DNA of 61,950 bases from Candidatus Pelearchaeum maunauluense (GCA_030059675.1 JANVYQ010000008.1:1-61950); one strand, 5' to 3'; numbered from the stretch's first letter, positions 50,067 through 61,823 are shown. The notes: generated by a model not told the origin, from the sequence alone. A program made the numbers and translations.

Positions 50067-51005
50067 GTGAGTAGAATAAGAAGAGGTGGATACTGGAACA
50101 AGATCGCCATAGTAGATCTCTCTAAGAAGCTGGTAAAGTATCTCGAGTTAAATGACTCTATATGTGGTAAGTTTATTGGCGGAATCGGATTAGGGGCAAA
50201 ACTCCTCATAGACAATACTCCTCCGGGAATCGGCCCATTCTCTCTAGAAAATTTAATCATTTATACTGTTGAACCTGTTGAGGGGCTGGTTCTACCTAGC
50301 GCTGCTAGAATGGCTGCTGTCTTCAAGTCTCCACTGACAGGATTCTTCGGTGAATCATTGTGTGGAGGATACATTGGTACGGAGCTTGCTAAAGCAAGTC
50401 TCGACGCAATAATAGTATCAGGCCAGTCGCCTGACCCTGTCTACTTGTTAATACAAGACGGGACTGTAGAAAATTAAGAATGCTTCATATCTATGTGGTC
50501 TAGACACATATGCGACTGAGAAAGAGTTATGGAGTGAACTCGGAGAAGTAATGACAGCATGTATAGGACCTGCTGGAGAAAATTTGGTGAGATTTGCATG
50601 TATAGTTCATGGTCTTTACATGCATGAGAGAAAGAAGCTTAGAGGGGGATTCTTCGGTAGAACGGGCGGAGTACCCACAAGATACTATGAAGGTGGAAGC
50701 TTCGAAGCCTATGAAAAGATTGGTCCAGAAACTTTTAACAAGTTATATGTAAAAAGAGGATTACATGTTTCGCTTGCCCAGTAGCTTGCGGTAGACACTC
50801 TGAAACCTCGGATGGATTGCAGACTGAGGGCCCTGAATATGAAACATTGTTCGCTCTAGGTCCACTCCCATACATAGATAACTTACAGACAATAGTGGAA
50901 GCAAATGATCTTGCAAACAGGCTTGGAATGGATACTATAAGCACGGGGAACGTCATAGCTTTCGCAATGTACTTCCTCGTCATCACTATGTGCATCCTAA
51001 GTTGA
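50067..51005 (+). pseudogene. aor: Tungsten-type aldehyde:ferredoxin oxidoreductase, fragmented with internal deletions
   Basis: KFIGGIGLG, KSPLTG..ESLCGG, IGPAGEN, GPEYET, GMDTIS across three frames. Confidence 0.88.
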
Positions 51006-51095
51006 CGTCAGGTTATGTTTGTCAGAGAATCGTCAAAAAATTAAATCATCAAAATTAGATCAAAAGTAGGATTGTTGGGGTAGTGATCTGCTGGG

Positions 51096-51381
51096 ATGTC
51101 CGTAGCCATGCGCATAATATACGGCTACATATCAGACTACGTTGAATCGTTAAACCCTAACGAAACATAGGTTAAGTTAAGCCCTGCTAAGAAGCTAGTT
51201 CTTAAGCTGCTAGGTGCTGTGAGGTTAGAGACTGTCTACGTTAAGACACCTATCGGTACTGAGGGTGCGGTTAGTATTTACCTAGTTAGTGCCCGAGCTG
51301 CAGCCAGCTCTACACAGACTACCCCACGGCTACACGCAGTTCCTGCAATGCCCTAAGTGCAGCACGAGAACATACCCCTAG
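51096..51381 (+). pseudogene. Small Zn-ribbon protein remnant
   Basis: ..YLV/CPSCSQLYTDYPHGYTQFLQCPKC; in-frame TAG near 51168 and a frameshift near 51288. Confidence 0.5.
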
Positions 51382-51391
51382 GTGATGCGTA

Positions 51392-51601
51392 GTGGTTAGG
51401 GATAGGCAACTATACGTAGCCGCGTTTAAGGAGCTCATAGACGAAGTCATCAGAGAGAACAGGAACGATCCTCAGAAAGCAAAAGAGCTAATAATCAACG
51501 AAGTACTTAGAGAAGCAAAGAAAGCGTTCAAGCCAGAGGAATATGAGGTTATTAAGCAGTACACATTAAGTAGGTTAAGGGAGTTAGGTTATGGATATTA
51601 A
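51392..51601 (+). CDS. Small helical hypothetical protein
   Basis: 69-aa charged ORF preceded by GGTGA, overlapping the next gene. Confidence 0.55.
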   Translation: MVRDRQLYVAAFKELIDEVIRENRNDPQKAKELIINEVLREAKKAFKPEEYEVIKQYTLSRLRELGYGY

Positions 51602-52561
51602 CGTTTTGTTGGTTAATAGTACTTTCGGTAGGCTTGTAAGTGGTAGTGGGCAACATGTATACATGCTCTGGAAGCACCTTAAAGATAAAGTGAATTTCGA
51701 GGTATGGAATGTTGAGAATATCGGTTACATAAACATCCCCAAGCTTAAGAGCATAACCTTCTACCTAAGAGCTAAGAGTAAGGAAATCCCTAAAGACATT
51801 GACATAATCCACATCCATAACCCAAAGTTTGCAGGGCTCTTCAGGAAGGGTAAAAAGAACATTCTTACAATTCATGGAGAGTATGGGGGGAACTAGAGTT
51901 ACAGTATGGTTTCCTAGCAAAACCAATTATCAAGTATATCGACAGAAACGTGAAGAGAGCTGATGTAATAACGACAGTCTCTCCTCACTGGTCTAGACTT
52001 TATGGTTGGAAGTGGATCCCCAACATGGTAGAGCTATCGGAAATCCGCGGCGTTAAGCCAGCCGATGAGAGTTACCTGCTGTTTGTTGGGAGGGATGACC
52101 TAGTAAAGGATTACCCGTTGTTTAGAAGAATAGCGAGAGAAGCTTATGAAAAACTCGGGATTAAGTCACTAGCTTTAGGCGTGGTAAGGGGTGACACGGA
52201 GTTTCTGAAGCACGCGAAGGTGGCTTGGGAACATGTAATAAGCTTCATGAAGTCAGCCCACGTATTGGTCATAACTTCAAGGTATGAAGGGTTCCCAACC
52301 ACCTTGCTAGAGGCGTGGGCTTCTGGATGACCTGTTGTGGCAAGGGAGATCCCGCCACTAGCTGAGCTCCAGAAGCTCTACCCAGGCTCAATGCTCCTAT
52401 TCGACGGCACCGTAGAGTCTGCATTGTCGAGGATACGCTCTCTACCCCACGAGGATGTTAGGAGGCGTGTTGTAGAGAGCGGACTACAGGTAGTAAAGAA
52501 CTTTGATGCTCCTATAGTGGCAGAGAAGTATTATAGACTCTACAAAGAGGTGATAAGCTAA
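51591..52561 (+). pseudogene. GT4 glycosyltransferase, disrupted
   Basis: DIIHIH, LTIHG, IPNMV, LFVGR..K, SRYEGFPTTLLEAWASG; frameshift at G-run near 51885 and in-frame TGA at 52328-52330. Confidence 0.85.
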
Positions 52562-52893
52562 TGATACTTGATGTGGGTAGTGGGCACAACCCTAGGGGAG
52601 ACGTAAACGTAGACCTATACAGAGATTGGACACCACATACATTTGGCAAGAAAGTAGTGAGGAAGAATCTGGTGCAAGCCGACGCTCACATGCTTCCTTT
52701 TAGGGATTCGTGTTTTGATGTGGTTCTATCTTTCCACCTGTTGGAGCACTTAGATAATCCCATACAAGAGTTGCGAGAGTTCGAGAGGGTAAGCAGACAT
52801 AGAGTAATAGTAGCTGTTCCACACCCCATTCACGAAATAATTGTAAGACTATTTGGCAAGCCAAATCCTAAACATAAATGTTTTTTCTCCTAG
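52561..52893 (+). CDS. Class I SAM-dependent methyltransferase (type 11), possibly C-terminally truncated
   Basis: ILDVGSG, ADAHMLPFRDSCFD, HLLEHL..P. Confidence 0.8.
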   Translation: MILDVGSGHNPRGDVNVDLYRDWTPHTFGKKVVRKNLVQADAHMLPFRDSCFDVVLSFHLLEHLDNPIQELREFERVSRHRVIVAVPHPIHEIIVRLFGKPNPKHKCFFS

Positions 52894-53007
52894 CTTTTTT
52901 AAGAAGAGGGGTTATAGTGTGCGGTTTAGAAAATATAGGATTTCCCTTTTTAGGGGTAGACTGAAGATTCCCTACCCTATCTGGATAATAGCTGATAAGG
53001 TGATAGC

Positions 53008-53295
53008 ATGAGGCTGTTAATTTTGGGTCTTGACGGGTTAGAATATAAGCTGGTTGAAAGATGGAACCTCGAAGTTTTCAAGCAAAAAGTCTACGGCAAG
53101 CATGACGTGTCGTTTTTCAGGAACATATTTACTTCGATAGTTTGGGCTAGCTTCTTACTGGGAGAGAATGCGGAAAAACTTGGATTCACGGTTGAAAGTC
53201 TTAGGGATAGACATGTACCACAGAAAGTCAGACCCTTGTGGAAACTACGGAGAAGGCTCATAAAAAGGAGTCTAGGCAGTTTCAAGCCCTTATAG
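53008..53295 (+). pseudogene. N-terminal fragment of an alkaline phosphatase/phosphodiesterase-superfamily protein
   Basis: LILGLDGL..TSIVWASFLLG; ends just before repeat copy 3. Confidence 0.6.
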
Positions 53296-53309
53296 GTAAT
53301 TCTATAATG

Positions 53310-53389
53310 GATGAACCCATGAGGAGCCCCGAGGCTGATGAATCCCAAGACCTACGCATGCCCATGAAAGACTACGCAGGTCAGAACCC
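53310..53389 (+). repeat. Dispersed repeat copy 3 (inverted relative to copies 1 and 2)
   Basis: Reverse complement of 10108-10187 with one mismatch. Confidence 0.85.
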
Positions 53390-53554
53390 GCACTTCTCAG
53401 GGTCGACCATCCTCTCCATCGTTCTCCTCTTCTTGTTTCTTGCTGCTCTCCTTAGCGGTGTCCCGCACTGCGGGCATCTTAGGGATTCTGTCTTCAGGTA
53501 CTCACAGCAGTGTGAGCAGTACCTGTATCCCTGGCTGTATGAGCTTCCTCCCAA
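53381..53554 (-). CDS. Small Zn-finger protein, 57 aa (not in ORF track)
   Basis: TTG start; GGSSYSQGYRYCSHCCEYLKTESLRCPQCGTPLRRAARNKKRR..; CxxC/CPxCG. Confidence 0.65.
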   Translation of the reverse strand: MGGSSYSQGYRYCSHCCEYLKTESLRCPQCGTPLRRAARNKKRRTMERMVDPEKCGF

Positions 53555-53612
53555 GCCCGCCTATCTCCACGCCTTTAACGCAGGTATATGAGCGTAGCGC
53601 CCGCCGCGCGTG

Positions 53613-54074: not shown

Positions 54075-54386
54075 CCCAATAATCTTTCAATTCCTTTTTG
54101 GATTTCTGATGCTCTGATATTATATGCTGGATGACCTCGTCTATTAGCGTCTTTCAATTCCTTTTTGGATTTCTGTTATTTTTATATTTTATACACGAGG
54201 TCCCAGTATCAGCTAAGACAACTCCACTAACAGCTAAAGTCCCGCCAATTCCACTATTCGCCAAGTGCAATGGAGCCATTTCTAAGCACATTTTATATCC
54301 CTCCTTGTTGAGCGGGTGTCAAATCTTCACTCCTTTTTGCTTTAAAAAATAAGGAGGGTTGAGCCATGTAGTAATGTGTCAAATCT

Positions 54387-54485
54387 TCACCCCTTTTCGC
54401 TGATGGATGTCACGCAGCATCCACAGCCGCACCAGCACGCATCCTCTTTCTTCTCTTTCTCAGCCCTTACTTTCTCTATCGGCAT
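54387..54485 (-). CDS. 32-aa Cys-rich, metallothionein-like peptide inside a giant spacer
   Basis: MPIEKVRAEKEKKEDACWCGCGCCVTSISEKG; GGTGA SD 5 nt upstream; divergent from hxlR. Confidence 0.65.
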   Translation of the reverse strand: MPIEKVRAEKEKKEDACWCGCGCCVTSISEKG

Positions 54486-54513
54486 GGCTGTCACCTGCGT
54501 AAATTATTTACAT

Positions 54514-54545
54514 TTGAAAGTATTTATACTTTCAAGAGGAAAGTA
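54514..54545. promoter_or_regulatory. Overlapping inverted repeats in the divergent promoter; candidate HxlR operator
   Basis: TTGAAAGTAT-TT-ATACTTTCAA and TACTTTC-AAGAG-GAAAGTA. Confidence 0.55.
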
Positions 54546-54575
54546 AAGAAAGTCACTTTACGGGGGGATAGTGAG

Positions 54576-54956
54576 ATGGAAAATAACATGCCATTCAAAT
54601 GCTCAATGGTGAAGAAACCCGGTGACCTTTGCCCATGCAGTCTGGAAGGCGTGATGAGCATTATTGGAAAGAAGTGGTCGATTCTCATAATTGGTACGTT
54701 AGGCAATCACAGGAGGCTAAGATACAACGAATTGCAGGAGAAATTGGGAAAGATCAGTCCTAAAACACTTACCGCAAGACTGAAGGAATTGGAGAGTATA
54801 GGGTTAGTAGGCAGACAAAGCTTTAACGAAATTCCTCCAAGGGTTGAGTATTTCTTGACTGAAGAGGGAGAAAAGTTGTTTAATTCGTTGCTCCCTCTTA
54901 TAAGATGGGCGATCGAAAGAGATCATAGATCTTTCAATTTCTTTTTGGATTTCTGA
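54576..54956 (+). CDS. HxlR/DUF24 (MarR-type) transcriptional regulator; C-terminus encoded by a CRISPR repeat
   Basis: CPC..IGKKWSILII..LRYNELQ..ISPKTLTARLKELE..PPRVEYFLTEEG; terminal SFNFFLDF comes from repeat 54931-54955. Confidence 0.92.
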   Translation: MENNMPFKCSMVKKPGDLCPCSLEGVMSIIGKKWSILIIGTLGNHRRLRYNELQEKLGKISPKTLTARLKELESIGLVGRQSFNEIPPRVEYFLTEEGEKLFNSLLPLIRWAIERDHRSFNFFLDF

Positions 54957-55073
54957 GACCCCATGTTTAGTTAAGAATGAAATGTTGTGTGAAATCTTTC
55001 AATTCCTTTTTGGATTTCTGGTACCATTAGGGGTATTGGCTTCATTTCACCACCTCCTTCTTAAAGAAAAAAA

Positions 55074-55211
55074 TTAGGGGGCTGGGACTGTTGCCTCGGC
55101 TCCCCATCCCCCCTCATACCAGCTGCCCCCGCATTCGGGGCAGATTTTCTCGCCGTATGGGCCTTCACGGGGTTTCACCCTCTGGCCGCAGTAGGGGCAT
55201 GGTTCCTTCAT
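55074..55211 (-). CDS. 45-aa Zn-ribbon protein inside the 204-bp giant spacer
   Basis: MKEPCPYCGQRVKPREGPYGEKICPECGGSWYEGGWGAEATVPAP; GGAGGGTG SD; T-tract after the stop. Confidence 0.7.
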   Translation of the reverse strand: MKEPCPYCGQRVKPREGPYGEKICPECGGSWYEGGWGAEATVPAP

Positions 55212-55524
55212 ATCTGCACCCTCCCTTTCAATTCCTTTTTGGATTTCTGCTAAACAAATAATTAACTTTCAACAACAACACGTTCACTTTCAATTCCTTT
55301 TTGGATTTCTGCTCAACCTCGTACACCACGCCCTCAAAAACAGTAATATTCTTTCAATTCCTTTTTGGATTTCTGTCACGTAGAATCTGTATATGCTGGC
55401 GAATGTGTTGATGTTCTTTCAATTCCTTTTTGGATTTCTGGAAGAGCATAGGCCGCGGGTAATACTAAGCGAGCCAGAAGTAAGCTTTCAATTCCTTTTT
55501 GGATTTCTGAGACGTCAGGTGGAG

Positions 55525-55599
55525 GGGGGCCTGAACACCAAGACATTTATTAGCTTATGGCTGGAGCTCCCATGCGCTATATCTTACGGCGCCTGCAAG
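55525..55599. repeat. Copy of the distal leader segment of array 2
   Basis: Matches 61661-61734 with one indel and one substitution. Confidence 0.9.
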
Positions 55600-55686
55600 T
55601 TAGCGACTTGAGCGCGTACGTGTATTTCCCAATAGTTGCCTGGCCGTTCTTCTCTAGACGCTCCACCAGCTGGGCTGGCGCCTGAT

Positions 55687-55839
55687 CTAGGAAGCACCAC
55701 TCGCCTGATCCTGATGGATAGGGCCTCCAGCTAACTCTGTCAAGCATAGCCTCGAGAGCATCCGCAGGTTCCTAAGCTCGCGTTCCAGCTCAGCTATCCT
55801 ATCGTCGACATACCTCAGGACATCCTCGTTTTCAGCCAT
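55687..55839 (-). CDS. Short coiled-coil ORF (50 aa), possibly truncated
   Basis: MAENEDVLRYVDDRIAELERELRNLRML.. Confidence 0.4.
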   Translation of the reverse strand: MAENEDVLRYVDDRIAELERELRNLRMLSRLCLTELAGGPIHQDQASGAS

Positions 55840-55880
55840 GCCGCATTACCCTGCACCTGCTACGGGCTCATATTAATGGG

Positions 55881-56177
55881 CTATGGCCTAAACGCCTCTC
55901 CTGTCCTGATGTTCCTCATCTCTATCCTTCCCCGCTTTTCGGCCAGAGCCACTACCGGCTCTGCGCCGGCCTTCTCCGCCAGCTCGAGAAGAGGCTCCAC
56001 CTCGCTGTACCTCACGTAGGCCCTGCTGTACTTGCACTCCACTAGGACGCTTCTACCCGCCTTCATGCATACGAGGTCTACTGGCTTGCTCCTCGCGCTT
56101 CTCACGACGACCCATCCCCTCTTCAGGAAAAGGTCTCTTACAATATACTCTAGGCGCCTGCCCTTCCTGTAGCTCAT
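55881..56177 (-). CDS. Holliday-junction-resolvase (Hjc)-like PD-(D/E)xK nuclease
   Basis: YRKGRRLE..GWVVVRSARSKPVDLV..LVECK. Confidence 0.85.
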   Translation of the reverse strand: MSYRKGRRLEYIVRDLFLKRGWVVVRSARSKPVDLVCMKAGRSVLVECKYSRAYVRYSEVEPLLELAEKAGAEPVVALAEKRGRIEMRNIRTGEAFRP

Positions 56178-56222
56178 CCATAGCTATTCACGCCGGGCTT
56201 GGATATAAGCAGGTGCGGCCTG

Positions 56223-58556
56223 CTAGCCGATGACTCCAACAACGTCGTGGACGAGCATGTTTGTCGAGCCTGACTCGTCGCGGAATATGCTGGCTCTCAC
56301 CCTGAGGACCCTGCCCTTCTTGATATAGTCGCGCGGGCCTGAGTACATTCCCGAGTCAAGCCTTGCTCTGAACCTGTCGTTTACTATCACTATCGCGTAG
56401 CCCGGTAGTATCTTCTCGACCTCTATGGTGTATATGTCTCCCTGCGCCTTCTTCGAGCTGCTTCTGACCGCTGCCTTGCTCATTATCCTGTTGCCGCTCC
56501 TTGTTATCGCCTCCTTCTTCTCTAGGTACTTCACCGCCTCCGCCACAACGTCGGGCTGGTACTCCTCGAGCTGCTCCAGCAGCTCGGCCTCGCTCACGCC
56601 CCTCGTGGAGCTCTTGAGGATGATCGTGTAAGCATCCTTGGCGCAGTGGTAAACATCCCTGAAGCTCGGGCCTGGCTTCCTGGCTTTCTGCCGGGGGCTC
56701 TCCACGGCGCGCGGCTCCTCAATCTCAATCACCTCCTCGCGCTGCGGCTCCTCCACCCGTATCGTCTCCCCAGCCGGGACGGCCTGTACCTCTATCTCAT
56801 GCTCCTCCGCGCGCCAGGGCCATGGCTCGCCTGCCGCGGGCTTTGGGCCGCGCCTCTCTAGCTTGATGCCCTCAAGCCTCTTGGCTACCTGCGTAAGGAC
56901 GCGCGTCATCTTCCTAGCCCGCTTGTAGCCCTCGCTGAAGTAGTACTCGTCCACCGTGCCCTGGGTGAGCAGTATCGTCACCTTTCCGGGTAGCCGCCTG
57001 CCCGTTCTCCCCCTTCTCTGTATGTATCTTATCCCCGATACCGCTGGCTCGTAGAATATGACGTATCCGCACTCCGGTATGTCCAGCCCCTCCTCGCCGA
57101 TGGCTGTTGCTGCGAGGATGTTGAACTCGCCCCTCCTAAACCTGTTCAGCGTGTTTATCTGCTCCTGCTGGCTCATCCTGGGGCCTGTCTTGCCCTCCGC
57201 CTTTCCGATGAACAGCTCAGCTCTGAGGCCCTTCTCGCGCAGCCTCTCGACGAGTATCTCCGCGGTGTGCCTGATGTTGGCGAACACCATTATCCTGTCT
57301 TCTGGCTTCTCCCTGAGGTGCTGGTCTATCAACGCGGCGATCACCTCCATCTTTGGGTGGTCTACCGCGCACCTCTCAGCCATCTCCACTAGCCTCGTGA
57401 AGTCAGGCGACCTGGCCAGCATCCTGTGGCTCTTGAGCTCGGACTTCTCCACCTCCCTAAGGTATTGGCGGAGGGAGTACACGTGCTGGCTCTCTACCAG
57501 CTCGAGCGCGTGGTATATGCTTAGTATTGTTGAGCATAGCGCCATGTAGTGCAGGTTCTCTCCCCTGACGCCCGAGTCTATCTCCGCTCTAAGCCTGGCC
57601 ATGAGCTGGACTATCACCTTCCTGTTGATGTTCTCTAGGGGCATCCTCAGCAAGCCGAGGCGCTGTAGCTCCTTCGCGCGCTCCTCTATCATCGCCTTGA
57701 CGTGCCTGCGTATGGACTCGTATTCTTCTGGGAGGCTTACCCTAACCCACTTCACCTGCACGCCCGGTATGTGCTCCGCAACCTCCTCGTCCTCCTCGGT
57801 CTTCCACGCTATCTCCTCTATCAGGAGGTTGCGGCATACCTCCATTACCTTGTCCTCCTCGCTTCCGGGGGATGCTGTGAGGGCGAGGATAAGCGGCCAC
57901 GGGCATCTCCTCGAATACTCTCCCGCGAGCCTGGTGTAGGCGTGTCTGTTCCTGCTTCTGTGGCACTCGTCGAAGACGAGCAGGGCAAACTCCTCAAGCG
58001 GCACGTATCCCCTGGCTAGGTCGTTCCAAACAGCCTGGGGCGTTGCGAAGAAAACCCTAACCCTGCTGTCCCTCCACTGCGATGGCCTCCTAGACGAGTC
58101 GCCTGTGATGACTGCTGTCTCCTCGCGCTCCAGCCTGAGGTGCTTGACGAAGCTCTCCCTATGCTGCGCCACGAGCGGCTTGGTCGGAGCCATCATCAAT
58201 ATCCTGCAGCCCGGGTAGCGGTGCAGCAGCTCGGCCGCGACCAGCTCTGCTATGACGGTCTTCCCAAGCGCGGTGGGCAGGACGACGAGGGTGTTCCTCT
58301 CGAGGCAGCGCTCGACAATATCCCGCTGGTAGCGCCTCTCCTCTATCGTCTCCGGCCTCACGAACGGGTGCTCAACAAAGCGTGCCCAGGCCTCCAGCCC
58401 CTGCTCCACCTTCACCTTCCTTATGTGCTTGCATTCTCCAGACCTGAACGTGAATGCGGGGCAGGTGCACCACCAGAGCCCCGCGTGGTCCAGCGTAACC
58501 GTGTATGTCTTGTGGGGCTCCGACTCGCTCTCGACCGGCCACTGCCTAACGCTCAT
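56223..58556 (-). CDS. Hef/FANCM(Mph1)-like SF2 helicase with N-terminal SWIM Zn finger and wHTH/OB-like C-terminus; no ERCC4 nuclease domain
   Basis: WWCTCPAF..CKH; LPTALGKT; APTKPL; FDECH; LTASPG; IGEEGLDIP; IQRRGRTGR. Confidence 0.9.
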   Translation of the reverse strand: MSVRQWPVESESEPHKTYTVTLDHAGLWWCTCPAFTFRSGECKHIRKVKVEQGLEAWARFVEHPFVRPETIEERRYQRDIVERCLERNTLVVLPTALGKTVIAELVAAELLHRYPGCRILMMAPTKPLVAQHRESFVKHLRLEREETAVITGDSSRRPSQWRDSRVRVFFATPQAVWNDLARGYVPLEEFALLVFDECHRSRNRHAYTRLAGEYSRRCPWPLILALTASPGSEEDKVMEVCRNLLIEEIAWKTEEDEEVAEHIPGVQVKWVRVSLPEEYESIRRHVKAMIEERAKELQRLGLLRMPLENINRKVIVQLMARLRAEIDSGVRGENLHYMALCSTILSIYHALELVESQHVYSLRQYLREVEKSELKSHRMLARSPDFTRLVEMAERCAVDHPKMEVIAALIDQHLREKPEDRIMVFANIRHTAEILVERLREKGLRAELFIGKAEGKTGPRMSQQEQINTLNRFRRGEFNILAATAIGEEGLDIPECGYVIFYEPAVSGIRYIQRRGRTGRRLPGKVTILLTQGTVDEYYFSEGYKRARKMTRVLTQVAKRLEGIKLERRGPKPAAGEPWPWRAEEHEIEVQAVPAGETIRVEEPQREEVIEIEEPRAVESPRQKARKPGPSFRDVYHCAKDAYTIILKSSTRGVSEAELLEQLEEYQPDVVAEAVKYLEKKEAITRSGNRIMSKAAVRSSSKKAQGDIYTIEVEKILPGYAIVIVNDRFRARLDSGMYSGPRDYIKKGRVLRVRASIFRDESGSTNMLVHDVVGVIG

Positions 58557-58885
58557 ATCTCCAGCGGCTCCTCTCCCTCCCCGCGCTCTCCCCTCGGATT
58601 AACCTGCTCAATAGTTTTCATGAGCTGCTCCAGCTTTGCGTCGTTGATGATAGCCCTGTAGTCGTTGAGATCATCCAGAGAGCGTAGTATTAGGCCGCGC
58701 CTCTTCTTCGTTTGGCCAGAGGAGTCCACCGGGTTGAGCTCCACAGCTATCTCCGCCGGGCGCGAGCCCTTCCTAGGGATTTTCAGGAGGAATACGCCGC
58801 TGAGAGAGGTCTTTCTACGCTCCCAATCCTTTCCAGACTCGAGGAAGCTCCTCAGCTTCTCGGCCAGGCTCAACCTCTTCAGCAC
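58553..58885 (-). CDS. Archaeal hypothetical protein, translationally coupled to the helicase
   Basis: KDWERRKTSLSGVFLLKIP..ELNPVD..KRRGL; stop overlaps the helicase start (ATGA). Confidence 0.8.
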   Translation of the reverse strand: MLKRLSLAEKLRSFLESGKDWERRKTSLSGVFLLKIPRKGSRPAEIAVELNPVDSSGQTKKRRGLILRSLDDLNDYRAIINDAKLEQLMKTIEQVNPRGERGEGEEPLEI

Positions 58886-58930
58886 CTACCACAGTAAAAG
58901 CGGCCCCAAGGATATATCCGTTCACGGCCT

Positions 58931-59308
58931 TTAGGCGATTAGCCTGCGCCTGCGCGCAGCATCCTCTCCAACGGCCATCCGAAGCATTCGGCGGAAAAGC
59001 TCTAGGACTCCCTCAACATCCACCTCGCTTGGCTTCTTCCTCATCTCCGCCAGCGCCAGCGCATCCTCTATCAAGCCAAGCGAATCCCTGAAGTATGCGA
59101 CGATTATCTTCGCCCGTGCCGTGGCGTGCCAGGGGTCTGAGACGCCGCGCCTAGCCTCCTCCAGAAGCCTCCTAAGCTCTTCCGCCAAAACAAGCCTACT
59201 AGAGCTGCCGACATATTCTCTAGCAGCTATCCTCGGGAGGAGGAAGAGCGCGGCTGAGGCAACTCCCTTTAGCTCGGCCAGCCCGCGCGCCTTCTCCGAC
59301 TCCAGCAA
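58931..59308 (-). CDS. Hypothetical helical protein
   Basis: 125-aa ORF; TATA-like TTATAT about 30 nt upstream. Confidence 0.5.
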   Translation of the reverse strand: MLESEKARGLAELKGVASAALFLLPRIAAREYVGSSSRLVLAEELRRLLEEARRGVSDPWHATARAKIIVAYFRDSLGLIEDALALAEMRKKPSEVDVEGVLELFRRMLRMAVGEDAARRRRLIA

Positions 59309-59470
59309 ACCCTCAACAGGAGATAGCGGCCCATATACGATATAAGCGTTCTAGGCTCTGTGTTAGCTTGTGGTTTGCTCTGCGGGCCGGCGCCCTCAAG
59401 GCTTATATATGCTCCGCATTTTTTGGAGGGGATGGGGTGTTTTGTCGTCTTCTCCTGTTCTGAGGCTTGG

Positions 59471-61519
59471 CTTTCAATTCCTTTTTGGATTTCTGAATGG
59501 AGTATGGAATCGCGGGGTAGTGAAGTGGTACTGGTTGCCAGAATCAAGAAAAACACGACCCACTAACTTCAAGTGGTTTTTGTTTGTCTTATGCGTTTAT
59601 ATAATTCCTGTTGAATTAGAGGTAGTCTAAAACTAGTTAGGCGGACATCATGTTGCATTCCGTCCTCATCCGTAAATGAGATAACTAGAACCTGCTTTCT
59701 ATTCTTCCTAGAGTAACCGATCAGTGCCCCTACCAGTAGGCCGGCTAAGACACCCAATGCGCCTATAAACAACACAAACAAAATCCCCAATAGAATAGCG
59801 CCGACTAACGCGTAGCCTACAATCTTCCAACCAGATGTCTCCTCCTCAACAACGTTCTGCATCATTATTATCTTATTGTATGGAATTCTAAACCTCCCAC
59901 CCCCCTCTATTTCCACATCCACATAATCATTTTGAAAGAAAAGCGATACTTGGTTAGGAAGCGGATAACCAACATGTCCCCCCAAATACTGGATATTAGA
60001 GTACCTAATGGGCTCCAATACCATAAACGTAAGAGAAACCTTCTTGTTTATATTTTTTACTAAGTCATTTTTACTATCGTTATTTCCTAGTTAGCGTTTG
60101 CCACACTTTCAATTCCTTTTTAGATTTCTGAGACACATTACTAAGGTCTTTGCTAGGCGTGTTAAATGAAACTTTCAATTCCTTTTTGGATTTCTGAGAT
60201 TCAGGGTGGGAGGGTCGTCATACTTGAGACCGAGAGCTCTTTCAATTCCTTTTTGGATTTCTGAACCCCGGCGTTGAGCGCTTCGCGGTCTTCACGAACC
60301 AGTATGGTACTTTCAATTCCTTTTTGGATTTCTGTGGTTGATAAGACCGCTCCCGTTCTCTACAGCCCGATACCTTTCAATTCCTTTTTGGATTTCTGGA
60401 CTTGGAAAACACCATGCTATGGCTTGAGGACATGGTGAGCTTTCAATTCCTTTTTGGATTTCTGTAGGATATTGGGCTGGGCTGGCAGTAGATGATTGTC
60501 TCCTTTCAATTCCTTTTTGGATTTCTGAAAGGAAAAGAGGGTTTAATCCGAATAATACTCTCTAACCAACTTTCAATTCCTTTTTGGATTTCTGAGATAT
60601 GGCAGACGCCGAAACAGGGCGTCTGCCCAGCCGACTTTCAATTCCTTTTTGGATTTCTGGAGGCACGACAAAACCTCAAGCGGTTCCTAACAAAACTGAC
60701 AAACTTTCAATTCCTTTTTGGATTTCTGAGACGTCAAAGAGCTGAGCGTAGAAGAACACGGAGAACAATCTTTCAATTCCTTTTTGGATTTCTGTTCGAA
60801 CGGTTGTCAGGTGTGAGCTCGTGAACAAAGAGCTTGCTTTCAATTCCTTTTTGGATTTCTGGGAATCCATATATAACACGATGGAAAAACTAGCAAACGT
60901 GCTTTCAATTCCTTTTTGGATTTCTGGTGGCTTAACAAAAGGCGGCCGGCCTACGCAGCCGCCATACAATACCTTTCAATTCCTTTTTGGATTTCTGCCG
61001 GTGTGATTGGGATAACTGGACTATCGTCGGCACGATCTTTCAATTCCTTTTTGGATTTCTGACACGGCTGTACGACGACGAGCCAACAAGATGTCTTATA
61101 TCTTTCAATTCCTTTTTGGATTTCTGTCTCTTTTTCATTTTTTCTTTTTCTAGGCTTTCTAGGCTCCTTTCAATTCCTTTTTGGATTTCTGAGGGTGAGA
61201 GTAGAAGCAGGGTTGGACATCCAGCACCTTTCCCCTTTCAATTCCTTTTTGGATTTCTGAACTCCTTGAAATCCCATTCAGCGGCGGCGGCACTGACATC
61301 TTTCAATTCCTTTTTGGATTTCTGCTATGTTTTGAGGGAGTTCGTTGAGGACGGAGAAGAGAGCTTTCAATTCCTTTTTGGATTTCTGGGCGCTTCCTGA
61401 GGAGAGGTATTTTGAGAACAGCTTATTCGCCTTTCAATTCCTTTTTGGATTTCTGCCAAATTTCTTGGGAGGTCGATGGGGTCGCTATGAGAATCTTTCA
61501 ATTCCTTTTTGGATTTCTG
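59471..61519 (-). CRISPR. CRISPR array 2: 23 repeats, 21 normal spacers (38-46 bp) and one 610-bp gene-carrying spacer at the trailer end
   Basis: Same 25-bp repeat at 59471, 60106 (1 mismatch), 60172 ... 61495; AT-rich leader follows 61519. Confidence 0.97.
59569..60024 (-). CDS. 151-aa membrane protein (YLGGH motif, PH-like beta domain with Gly-rich TM hairpin) inside a giant spacer
   Basis: Intact AT-rich ORF; A-rich BRE plus TATAAA at about 60047-60058, 23-28 nt upstream of the ATG. Confidence 0.8.
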   Translation of the reverse strand: MVLEPIRYSNIQYLGGHVGYPLPNQVSLFFQNDYVDVEIEGGGRFRIPYNKIIMMQNVVEEETSGWKIVGYALVGAILLGILFVLFIGALGVLAGLLVGALIGYSRKNRKQVLVISFTDEDGMQHDVRLTSFRLPLIQQELYKRIRQTKTT

Positions 61520-61734
61520 TGAAGCTATTTATTTTGGTTTGTTGGTTGTATTTTAGTTTTTCTTTTTGTTGGTTCGTCAATTGGCGAATGTTGTTGTTTT
61601 CTTGGGATTTTTTCGGGAGTCGCTGTTCAGCACCCCTGCTGCGGCCCAGTTCTTTATATAGGGGGCCTGAACACCAAGACATTTTTAGCTTATGGCTGGA
61701 GCTCCCATGCGCTATATCTTACAGCGCCTGCAAG
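61520..61734 (-). promoter_or_regulatory. CRISPR leader of array 2
   Basis: Non-coding, AT-rich, TATATAAA on the minus strand near 61652-61660; distal part conserved beside array 1. Confidence 0.8.
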
Positions 61735-61823
61735 GCGTCCTATATATTGGCTAAAGGCCACCGTAGTTTTCTCAAGTACCTTACTAGCCCTCGGGTCTGC
61801 GTCCTATATATTGGCTAAAGGCC
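61735..61823. repeat. Perfect 25-bp direct repeat flanking a 39-bp unique insert
   Basis: GCGTCCTATATATTGGCTAAAGGCC at 61735-61759 and 61799-61823. Confidence 0.9.

Follow-up and report, generated by a model that had tools for sequence, protein, structure and literature searches.

Contig C8 of the Candidatus Pelearchaeum maunauluense assembly (GCA_030059675.1, JANVYQ010000008.1), which over its entire length of 61,950 nucleotides is the window analysed here, carries two CRISPR arrays in which gene-sized pieces of DNA occupy spacer positions. The genome, that of an uncultured and thermophile-like archaeon, comprises 21 contigs, totals 1.79 Mb and is 94% complete. Array 1 (54084..55509, minus strand) has nine repeats, six normal spacers of 37-44 nt and two giant segments, and array 2 (59471..61519, minus strand) has 23 repeats, 21 normal spacers of 38-46 nt and a giant segment in its most leader-distal position. 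The 25-nt repeat, CTTTCAATTCCTTTTTGGATTTCTG, occurs 32 times in the window, in 30 exact copies and two with one mismatch. Leaving out the 3961-nt stretch that separates the arrays, the repeats enclose 30 segments; 27 of these measure 37-46 nt, and the other three measure 755 nt (insert 1, 54176..54930; G+C content (GC) 0.42), 204 nt (insert 2, 55021..55224; GC 0.56) and 610 nt (insert 3, 59496..60105; GC 0.41). These numbers, sizes and positions reproduce exactly those of a preliminary description of the locus, and a fourth case extends the observation: on contig C2 of the same genome, 435 nt with a GC of 0.575 (C2:370534-370968) lie between two exact repeats.

Both loci are CRISPR arrays, with a direct repeat at regular spacing, spacers that are all unique and a conserved leader. 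The spacers do not match their own genome beyond a chance level of 13-18 nt, and none is self-targeting. The reverse complement of CTTTCAATTCCTTTTTGGATTTCTG terminates in ATTGAAAG, which we take to be the 5' handle that crenarchaeal CRISPR RNAs (crRNAs) of types I-A and III bear, so the arrays are read as crRNA from the minus strand; the leaders, located to the right of both arrays, agree with this orientation. The leader core of array 1 (55510..55599, minus strand) has near-copies, with 97-99% identity, beside array 2 (61661-61734) and at two C2 sites (C2:68455-68544 and C2:371273-371327). In the leader of array 2 (61520..61734, minus strand), which is 73% identical to the leader of an array from the same genus, 141 A/T-rich nucleotides precede the common core. 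This core, 75-90 nt long, flanks both arrays and also a lone repeat on C2: at C2:68455-68569, the array 1 leader core recurs (98.9% identity over 90 nt) and is followed by one exact repeat and no spacer, as in an 'empty' array.

All four inserts abut complete 25-nt repeats at both borders, and six of the eight flanking repeats are exact. The four show no terminal inverted repeats, no extra duplications or duplicated spacers at their ends, no transposase or integrase in Pfam scans of insert and neighbouring open reading frames (ORFs) or PHROG scans of the inserts, and no second or partial copy of any insert elsewhere in the genome. The earlier statement that full repeats bound each insert directly, without ends of insertion sequences (ISs) or further duplications, therefore holds. 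Insertion of an IS or a miniature inverted-repeat transposable element (MITE), which had been named as an outcome that would overturn the original interpretation, should leave inverted repeats, a separate target duplication and either a transposase or multiple copies; the inserts show none of these. Like acquired spacers, they sit flush between two repeats; their lengths of 204, 435, 610 and 755 nt do not obey the length ruler, which is 37-46 nt here. They hold a regulator, small ORFs and a membrane protein only, and not the replication, integration and structural genes of a whole virus or plasmid. Inserts 1 and 2 are not a single piece that was later split, as their GC is unlike and no reading frame continues from one to the other. 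No Rfam family was detected in the window at gathering thresholds.

Oligo-T runs, which act as transcription termination signals in archaea, are present on the crRNA strand inside inserts 1, 2 and 3 and would probably end the pre-crRNA within them. In that case, the spacers on their far side (54109-54150 and 54956-54995) are likely to be silent.

Gene content and origin of the inserted DNA

Insert 1 forms a compact regulatory unit and carries an HxlR-family regulator gene (54576..54956, plus strand; PF01638, E 8.9e-24). In an alignment with 11 homologues, the conserved part of the protein ends, with the residues RDHR, precisely at the insert edge, and the repeat, together with the base that opens the following spacer, provides the last eight codons and the stop; truncation at the repeat has cost the protein a few C-terminal residues at most. 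Its best non-self relative is 71% identical (246 matches among 252 candidates), as compared with 34% for the host's own two paralogues, one of which is encoded ~1.5 kb from the empty array at C2:68455-68569. Divergent from the regulator gene is a small cysteine-rich ORF of ~32-35 amino acids (54387..54494, minus strand; ...CWCGCGCC...), and an imperfect palindrome between the two (54507..54542; 17-nt arms, 82% complementary) is likely to be an operator. One clear analogue of this arrangement, locus L012, encodes a cysteine-rich peptide (GCGCGCC...CDGCCGCC) divergently upstream of a 60%-identical HxlR protein, and at 11 further loci of 73 HxlR loci a cysteine cluster appears only in an alternative frame. 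HxlR and a divergent tiny cysteine-rich peptide may, on this comparison, form a conserved two-gene unit. A third ORF (54154..54291, minus strand) begins with a Shine–Dalgarno (SD) sequence, AAGGAGGG, and an ATG and enters the flanking repeat after 38 codons. Downstream of the cysteine-rich ORF, insert 1 also contains a pair of 26-nt direct repeats (54316-54341 and 54376-54401; 92% identity), 60 nt apart. Their spacing is CRISPR-like, yet each copy holds an SD-like sequence (AAGGAGTGA and AAGGGGTGA, respectively), and the 26-nt repeat is absent from the viral contigs collection.

Insert 2 reads, on the minus strand, as a repeat, GGAGGGTGCAGAT, ATG, a 45-amino-acid zinc-ribbon ORF, TAA, seven Ts, AAGGAGGTGGTGAA, ATG, eight codons and again a repeat. 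The zinc-ribbon ORF (55074..55211, minus strand), for which Pfam zinc-ribbon matches are weak and under the cut-off, has an SD sequence, GGAGGGTG, that starts immediately past the repeat. The start of the second gene (55021..55045, minus strand; SD AAGGAGGTGGTGAA, ATG at 55045-55043) is cut by the repeat after its eighth codon. Insert 2 is a piece of an operon that was cut regardless of gene borders.

Insert 3 carries a gene for a 151-amino-acid membrane protein (59569..60024, minus strand) with a glycine-rich membrane helix, A/T-rich DNA upstream and a hairpin followed by five Ts downstream. This protein found only itself among 167 candidates and had no match in the viral contigs collection. 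It has a weak match to phrog_17658 (E 0.0037), and a structural lead from the Atlas tentatively links it to PF27000 (PH_gly_zipper), in a virus-rich cluster. At the DNA level, 15 of 401 phylum genomes matched insert 3 at E values up to 0.01; the non-self matches were chance-level pieces of 23-47 nt, and the two that were inspected both lie outside arrays. Thus, each insert in the window does hold at least one gene, as the preliminary description had stated. Its further point, that genes are cut at the repeat edge, applies to the second gene of insert 2 and the third ORF of insert 1 and fails for HxlR.

On C2, the two exact repeats (starting at C2:370509 and C2:370969) are 334 nt from the contig end. 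A piece of the leader core lies inverted at the very end of the contig, and the pair has no leader in the right orientation. One frame is open over all 435 nt of the insert (G+C at third codon positions (GC3) 0.78), with no ATG near its start. The predicted protein matched only itself among 1.84 billion representatives; within the class, 2 of 76 genomes gave matches, namely itself and one with an E value of 0.003 that contains stops. Codon-position GC led us to reject the idea that lone repeats had dropped into one older C2 gene.

The four inserts differ in GC (0.42, 0.56, 0.41 and 0.575) and have no sequence in common, and these differences, together with the lack of a second genomic copy, indicate that they came from independent sources. 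The earlier inference of several independent events is borne out in this respect, with four in the genome. Insert 1 DNA matched 2 of 76 class genomes, one being its own and the other contributing a 172-nt stretch with 68% identity inside the HxlR gene. Inserts 1 and 3 had no match in phage records, and a search with the HxlR alignment found no match in viral contigs and, in metagenome contigs, a best match with 60% identity. The donor search proposed in the preliminary description thus came back empty in the collections covered (phage records, class and phylum genomes, viral contigs, metagenome contigs and protein representatives). Judged by its sequence, the inserted DNA is foreign or without known relatives. 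The repeat itself is equally elusive: the exact 25-mer has no occurrence in the genome, viral and metagenome contig collections, which evidently do not include this community, and none of 17 family relatives contains it at up to two mismatches. A search with a 21-nt repeat core recovered a sister repeat (...GGATTCAAG) in 9 archaeal records among 17 stretches, including a genome of the same genus and several records of archaeal metagenome-assembled genomes; we take the eight bacterial single matches to be due to chance.

The relatives' arrays that were covered contain no such segments. Among the matches listed, 91 intervals could be counted, all of 61-73 nt from start to start and none long, with 128 further matches outside this count; a second set of related arrays, in which some genomes overlap the first set, yields 15 intervals of 61-67 nt. 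The difference between 4 of 31 long segments in this genome and 0 of 91 in the relatives (Fisher P 0.004) indicates that long segments belong to this genome and not to the lineage.

Routes by which long DNA could enter the arrays

In our best reading, to which we assign a probability of roughly 0.37, long untrimmed fragments were integrated in the manner of spacers, with duplication of a repeat. The adaptation integrase would make staggered attacks at both borders of one repeat, the fragment would be joined in, and gap filling would then copy the repeat, leaving repeat, fragment and repeat without a further scar. For this to happen, the ruler and Cas4-type trimming would both have to fail, letting the fragment escape cutting to ~40 nt. 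The events would be early acquisitions, followed by four normal ones in array 1 and 21 in array 2, and the captured genes would be passengers rather than selected cassettes. Spacer-type integration by Cas1-Cas2 duplicates the repeat, and the flush, complete repeats at all insert borders, six of eight being exact, are what such duplication would be expected to produce. Moreover, the ends of the inserts ignore gene boundaries, as spacer ends do, in insert 2, in the third ORF of insert 1 and in the C2 frame, and the lack of inverted repeats, transposase, integrase and end duplications also favors this reading. A more specific claim, that archaeal adaptation machinery integrated fragments of 0.2-0.8 kb, whole genes included, at least four times in one lineage with normal repeat duplication, is one that we put forward tentatively and with more doubt than confidence.

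The positions of the inserts fit this reading as well. All three window inserts are leader-distal: counted from the far end, inserts 1 and 2 occupy positions 2 and 4 of 8 in array 1, and insert 3 occupies the first of 22 positions in array 2, an arrangement with a chance probability of ~0.01 (calculated post hoc). This placement fits an early time window for long acquisitions or, alternatively, tolerance of inserts only at the far end. Inserts that halt transcription would be tolerated only at an array's far end, and this effect could alone account for the distal bias.

Several observations weigh against spacer-type integration. The known integrase has a length ruler, and the literature searched yielded no in vivo case of hundreds of bases being integrated in the manner of a spacer. 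Moreover, cas1, cas2 and cas4 were not found in the 94%-complete assembly, and the enzyme may be absent. Cas1 is present in 12 of 17 family relatives and in neither genome of this genus. In one relative, cas1 lies ~1.2 kb past the leader; given this layout, and given that our contigs stop at the leader and just after cas6, the adaptation module may lie past the contig ends. The repeats pose another difficulty. The only two variants among 35 repeats in the genome are the leader-proximal flanks of insert 1 (54931..54955, minus strand; C to T at plus-strand position 10) and insert 3 (60106..60130, minus strand; G to A at plus-strand position 17; P 0.01-0.05), and an exact copy paired with a variant is not what simple duplication of a single repeat predicts. 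In four of five related arrays with the far end on the contig, the variant repeat is the outermost one; in the window arrays, the outermost (most distal) repeats are exact. [quoted passage not shown]

The other leading explanation is homologous recombination between repeats, in which foreign or sister-strain DNA bearing the repeat crossed over with a resident repeat and ended up between two hybrid repeats; the incoming DNA could have been a virus or plasmid with a lone repeat or a mini-array, or else a circle released by excision from a different array. Excerpts of PMC6858448 document archaeal viruses and conjugative plasmids that carry stand-alone repeats and mini-arrays matching host repeats exactly, and a viral genome has been proposed to integrate into an array by way of such repeats (PMC8616872, in an excerpt citing Faure 2019). 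These elements resemble our case in that foreign DNA is associated with host-type repeats and the product is repeat, element and repeat. A crossover within a variant resident repeat would generate one exact and one variant copy, matching inserts 1 and 3, and the variants would be former terminal repeats, as in four of the five related arrays noted above. CRISPR parts have also been reshuffled elsewhere in this genome, which contains four leader copies, the leader with a single repeat at C2:68455-68569 and the orphan pair by an inverted piece of leader, and recombination, being independent of position and of leaders, suits the C2 pair. Nevertheless, it requires repeat-bounded donors of 0.2-0.8 kb, or whole elements that shrank below 1 kb four times while keeping both junctions, and no donor with the repeat was found, the exact 25-mer occurring in no other record of the three contig collections, nor in the 17 family relatives with up to two mismatches. 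A repeat eight codons inside a gene, at one border of insert 2, would be an unexpected site for a mobile element's stand-alone repeat, and the origin of the first repeat-fragment-repeat arrangement is left unexplained. We judge this route only slightly less probable than spacer-type integration. A different exchange, between spacers and an invader, had been offered in the preliminary description and predicts a duplicated spacer at the insert ends, where there is none. An older and unrelated history seems improbable. In this scenario, the segments would be remnants of DNA between small arrays, or repeats and mini-arrays would have been seeded into older DNA, or an element inserted into spacers would later have been trimmed to the repeat edges by deletions. 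The layout lends itself to such a history: array 1 can be read as repeat, spacer and repeat, then 755 nt, then variant repeat, spacer and repeat, then 204 nt, then five repeats with the leader, and array 2 as a single repeat, 610 nt and a series from a variant repeat to the leader, which places each variant at the far end of a segment. Repeats also bound the 3961-nt stretch between the arrays, gene fragments to the left of array 1 (~50.0-53.6 kb) bespeak a decaying neighbourhood, and inserts 1 and 3 (GC 0.41-0.42) come near the GC of the cas cassette described below (0.377) and could be native DNA of a transferred CRISPR-cas island. Simple fission, inversion or deletion, though, would not place direct, leaderless, exact repeats around four unrelated segments; the decayed region contains no degenerate repeats; the orphan distal repeats are perfect, contrary to great age; and on C2 the flank looks coding (GC3 0.78) in the frame that runs through the repeat, as compared with a GC3 of 0.51 in the frame joined upon removal of the repeat.

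An artefact of assembly or binning, in which pieces of other molecules were threaded into the arrays, is somewhat more improbable still. In its favor, the assembly has 21 contigs, is 94% complete and breaks at the repeated leader, and the phenomenon is restricted, within the set of genomes examined, to this one. However, contig ends share overlaps of exactly 77 nt in seven pairs, from which we infer a de Bruijn graph assembly with k = 77. A 77-mer would comprise the 25-nt repeat and up to 52 nt of unique flank, so each junction must come from reads, and even mis-threading would need real molecules with a full repeat directly adjoining the insert on either side. The eight junctions, of which six are in the window and two on C2, are all clean, and they are probably real. 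The least probable of the explanations is a working integron-like platform, proposed in the preliminary description, in which the array captures, stores and expresses cassettes and the repeat serves as the recombination site. Integron cassettes are likewise short units of about one gene, split by a repeated site and similar in size to our inserts of 204-755 nt, and there are four events in one genome. In insert 2, the SD sequence of the small gene directly follows the repeat, and, speculatively, cutting by Cas6 could free a translatable RNA; an insert 1 circle would be tidy, with two convergent ORFs ending in the repeat. But an integron has IntI next to its cassette array, and its cassettes are whole ORFs that mostly lack a promoter, point the same way and each bring an attC site. 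Here there is neither an IntI-type recombinase nor attI or attC, and ordinary spacers make up 27 of the 30 units. Only one tyrosine recombinase is encoded in the genome (PF00589, C2:279454-279948), ~90 kb from the C2 case; contig C8 encodes none, the ORFs around the arrays lack such a domain, and neither locus has a site-specific recombinase nearby. The genes point in both directions, HxlR and the C2 ORF being antisense to the crRNA strand, insert 1 has a divergent promoter unit and insert 2 carries a truncated second gene, so that no defined cassettes can be recognized. Of the four insert genes, two are orphans; no cassette has a second occurrence, the related arrays counted hold none (0 of 91 intervals), and the oligo-T runs would probably stop transcripts. 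What stands of the original interpretation is that contiguous non-array DNA occupies exact spacer positions and that integration of long prespacers and recombination are the two leading explanations; the platform itself does not stand.

Precedents and implications

Spacer-type integration of long fragments, as we favor it, agrees with canonical type I-A acquisition by Cas1-Cas2, with or without Cas4, in that arbitrary foreign DNA is inserted exactly between repeats with no other duplication; the genome has a type I-A interference cassette and a repeat of the ATTGAAAG kind. It departs from canonical acquisition in that the inserts, at 204-755 nt, are ~5-18 times the normal size set by the 27 spacers of 37-46 nt and contain whole genes, and in that the assembly lacks Cas1, Cas2 and Cas4. 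For long inserts, the casposon offers the closest enzymatic parallel, as its Cas1-family integrase inserts kilobase-scale DNA with target duplication. A casposon brings along a Cas1 and a polymerase of its own and has terminal inverted repeats, none of which is present here. IS or transposase insertions that interrupt CRISPR loci, an example of which appears in an excerpt of PMC8473940, also bring non-spacer DNA into such a locus; they carry a transposase and their own ends and land in spacers, in repeats or between genes, whereas here the borders are those of the repeats. We found no description of gene-length DNA flush between CRISPR repeats in the portions of the literature searched.

The type I-A interference cassette of the genome (C13:42479-49176) encodes Cas3'', Cas3', Cas5a, Csa2, Csa5 and Cas6, with a 392-amino-acid protein in the position of Cas8a; Csa5 and Cas6 score below the curated cut-off. 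The cassette locus (L114, C13:42479-49476) has a GC of 0.377, as compared with a genome median of 0.51, and ends 300 nt before the contig end, inside an ORF. It looks like a transferred island.

To our knowledge, CRISPR arrays are thought to admit only ruler-measured fragments of ~30-45 nt. The segments described here would mean either that an integrase bypasses its ruler in vivo or that arrays are entry points for repeat-bearing mobile DNA. The latter route has been proposed (PMC8616872, in the excerpt citing Faure 2019), and no described example at such a scale was found in the portions of the literature searched. Either mechanism, if true, would give arrays a minor part in gene gain, would open them to inactivation and would tie spacer acquisition more closely to its transposon-like, casposon ancestry. 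If integration of long fragments in particular is correct, then spacer length control is not absolute in vivo, and arrays could occasionally import intact foreign genes. By our own reasoning, adaptation assays and array finders favor spacer-sized units, and such acquisitions would for this reason have gone unnoticed; array finders with a spacer-length limit will split or drop loci of this kind. The present case is a lead from one short-read assembly and not an established result.

Genomic surroundings of the arrays

The 3961 nt between the arrays consist of GC-rich host genes. Among them, at 55881-58556, are an Hjc-like nuclease gene (PF01870, Mrr_cat) and a gene for a 777-amino-acid protein with SWIM as well as DEAD and Helicase_C domains. 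The nuclease and helicase genes are also side by side in a family relative (G015), and unannotated ORFs of 110 and 125 amino acids complete the block. To the left of array 1 (50067-53600) are gene fragments, comprising an N-terminal piece of AFOR (136 amino acids), two glycosyltransferase pieces and a methyltransferase piece, with low GC at 52700-53300; immediately upstream, the genes of an ABC transporter are intact. No degenerate repeats were found in this decayed region within eight mismatches, apart from one chance-level match.

A dispersed repeat of ~80-110 nt, with 91-99% identity among at least nine genome copies, is present at 53310-53389, 1-116 and C8:10102-10279 and on contigs C2, C13, C14, C15, C18 and C20. 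Its Rfam search gave no match at gathering thresholds, and it could be a MITE or a small RNA gene. Copies at several contig ends indicate that it causes breaks in the assembly, and one copy lies ~700 nt from the far end of array 1. At the contig end, past the array 2 leader, a 25-nt sequence (GCGTCCTATATATTGGCTAAAGGCC) is present as two identical direct repeats (61735-61759 and 61799-61823) spaced by 64 nt. Each includes a TATA-like box, and they may be regulatory sites of neighbouring genes beyond the contig end.

A three-repeat array with a different repeat, CTTTCAATTCCTTCTAGGATTCAAG, is located at C2:12760-12930 and adjoins five RAMP-family genes at C2:3187-10970; together, these presumably constitute a type III module. 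In the same-genus relative, bases 1-17 of one contig (L089, G016:C73) read ATGTGTATAAGAGACAG, which we take to be the end of the Nextera transposase adapter, implying that this public assembly retains untrimmed adapter.

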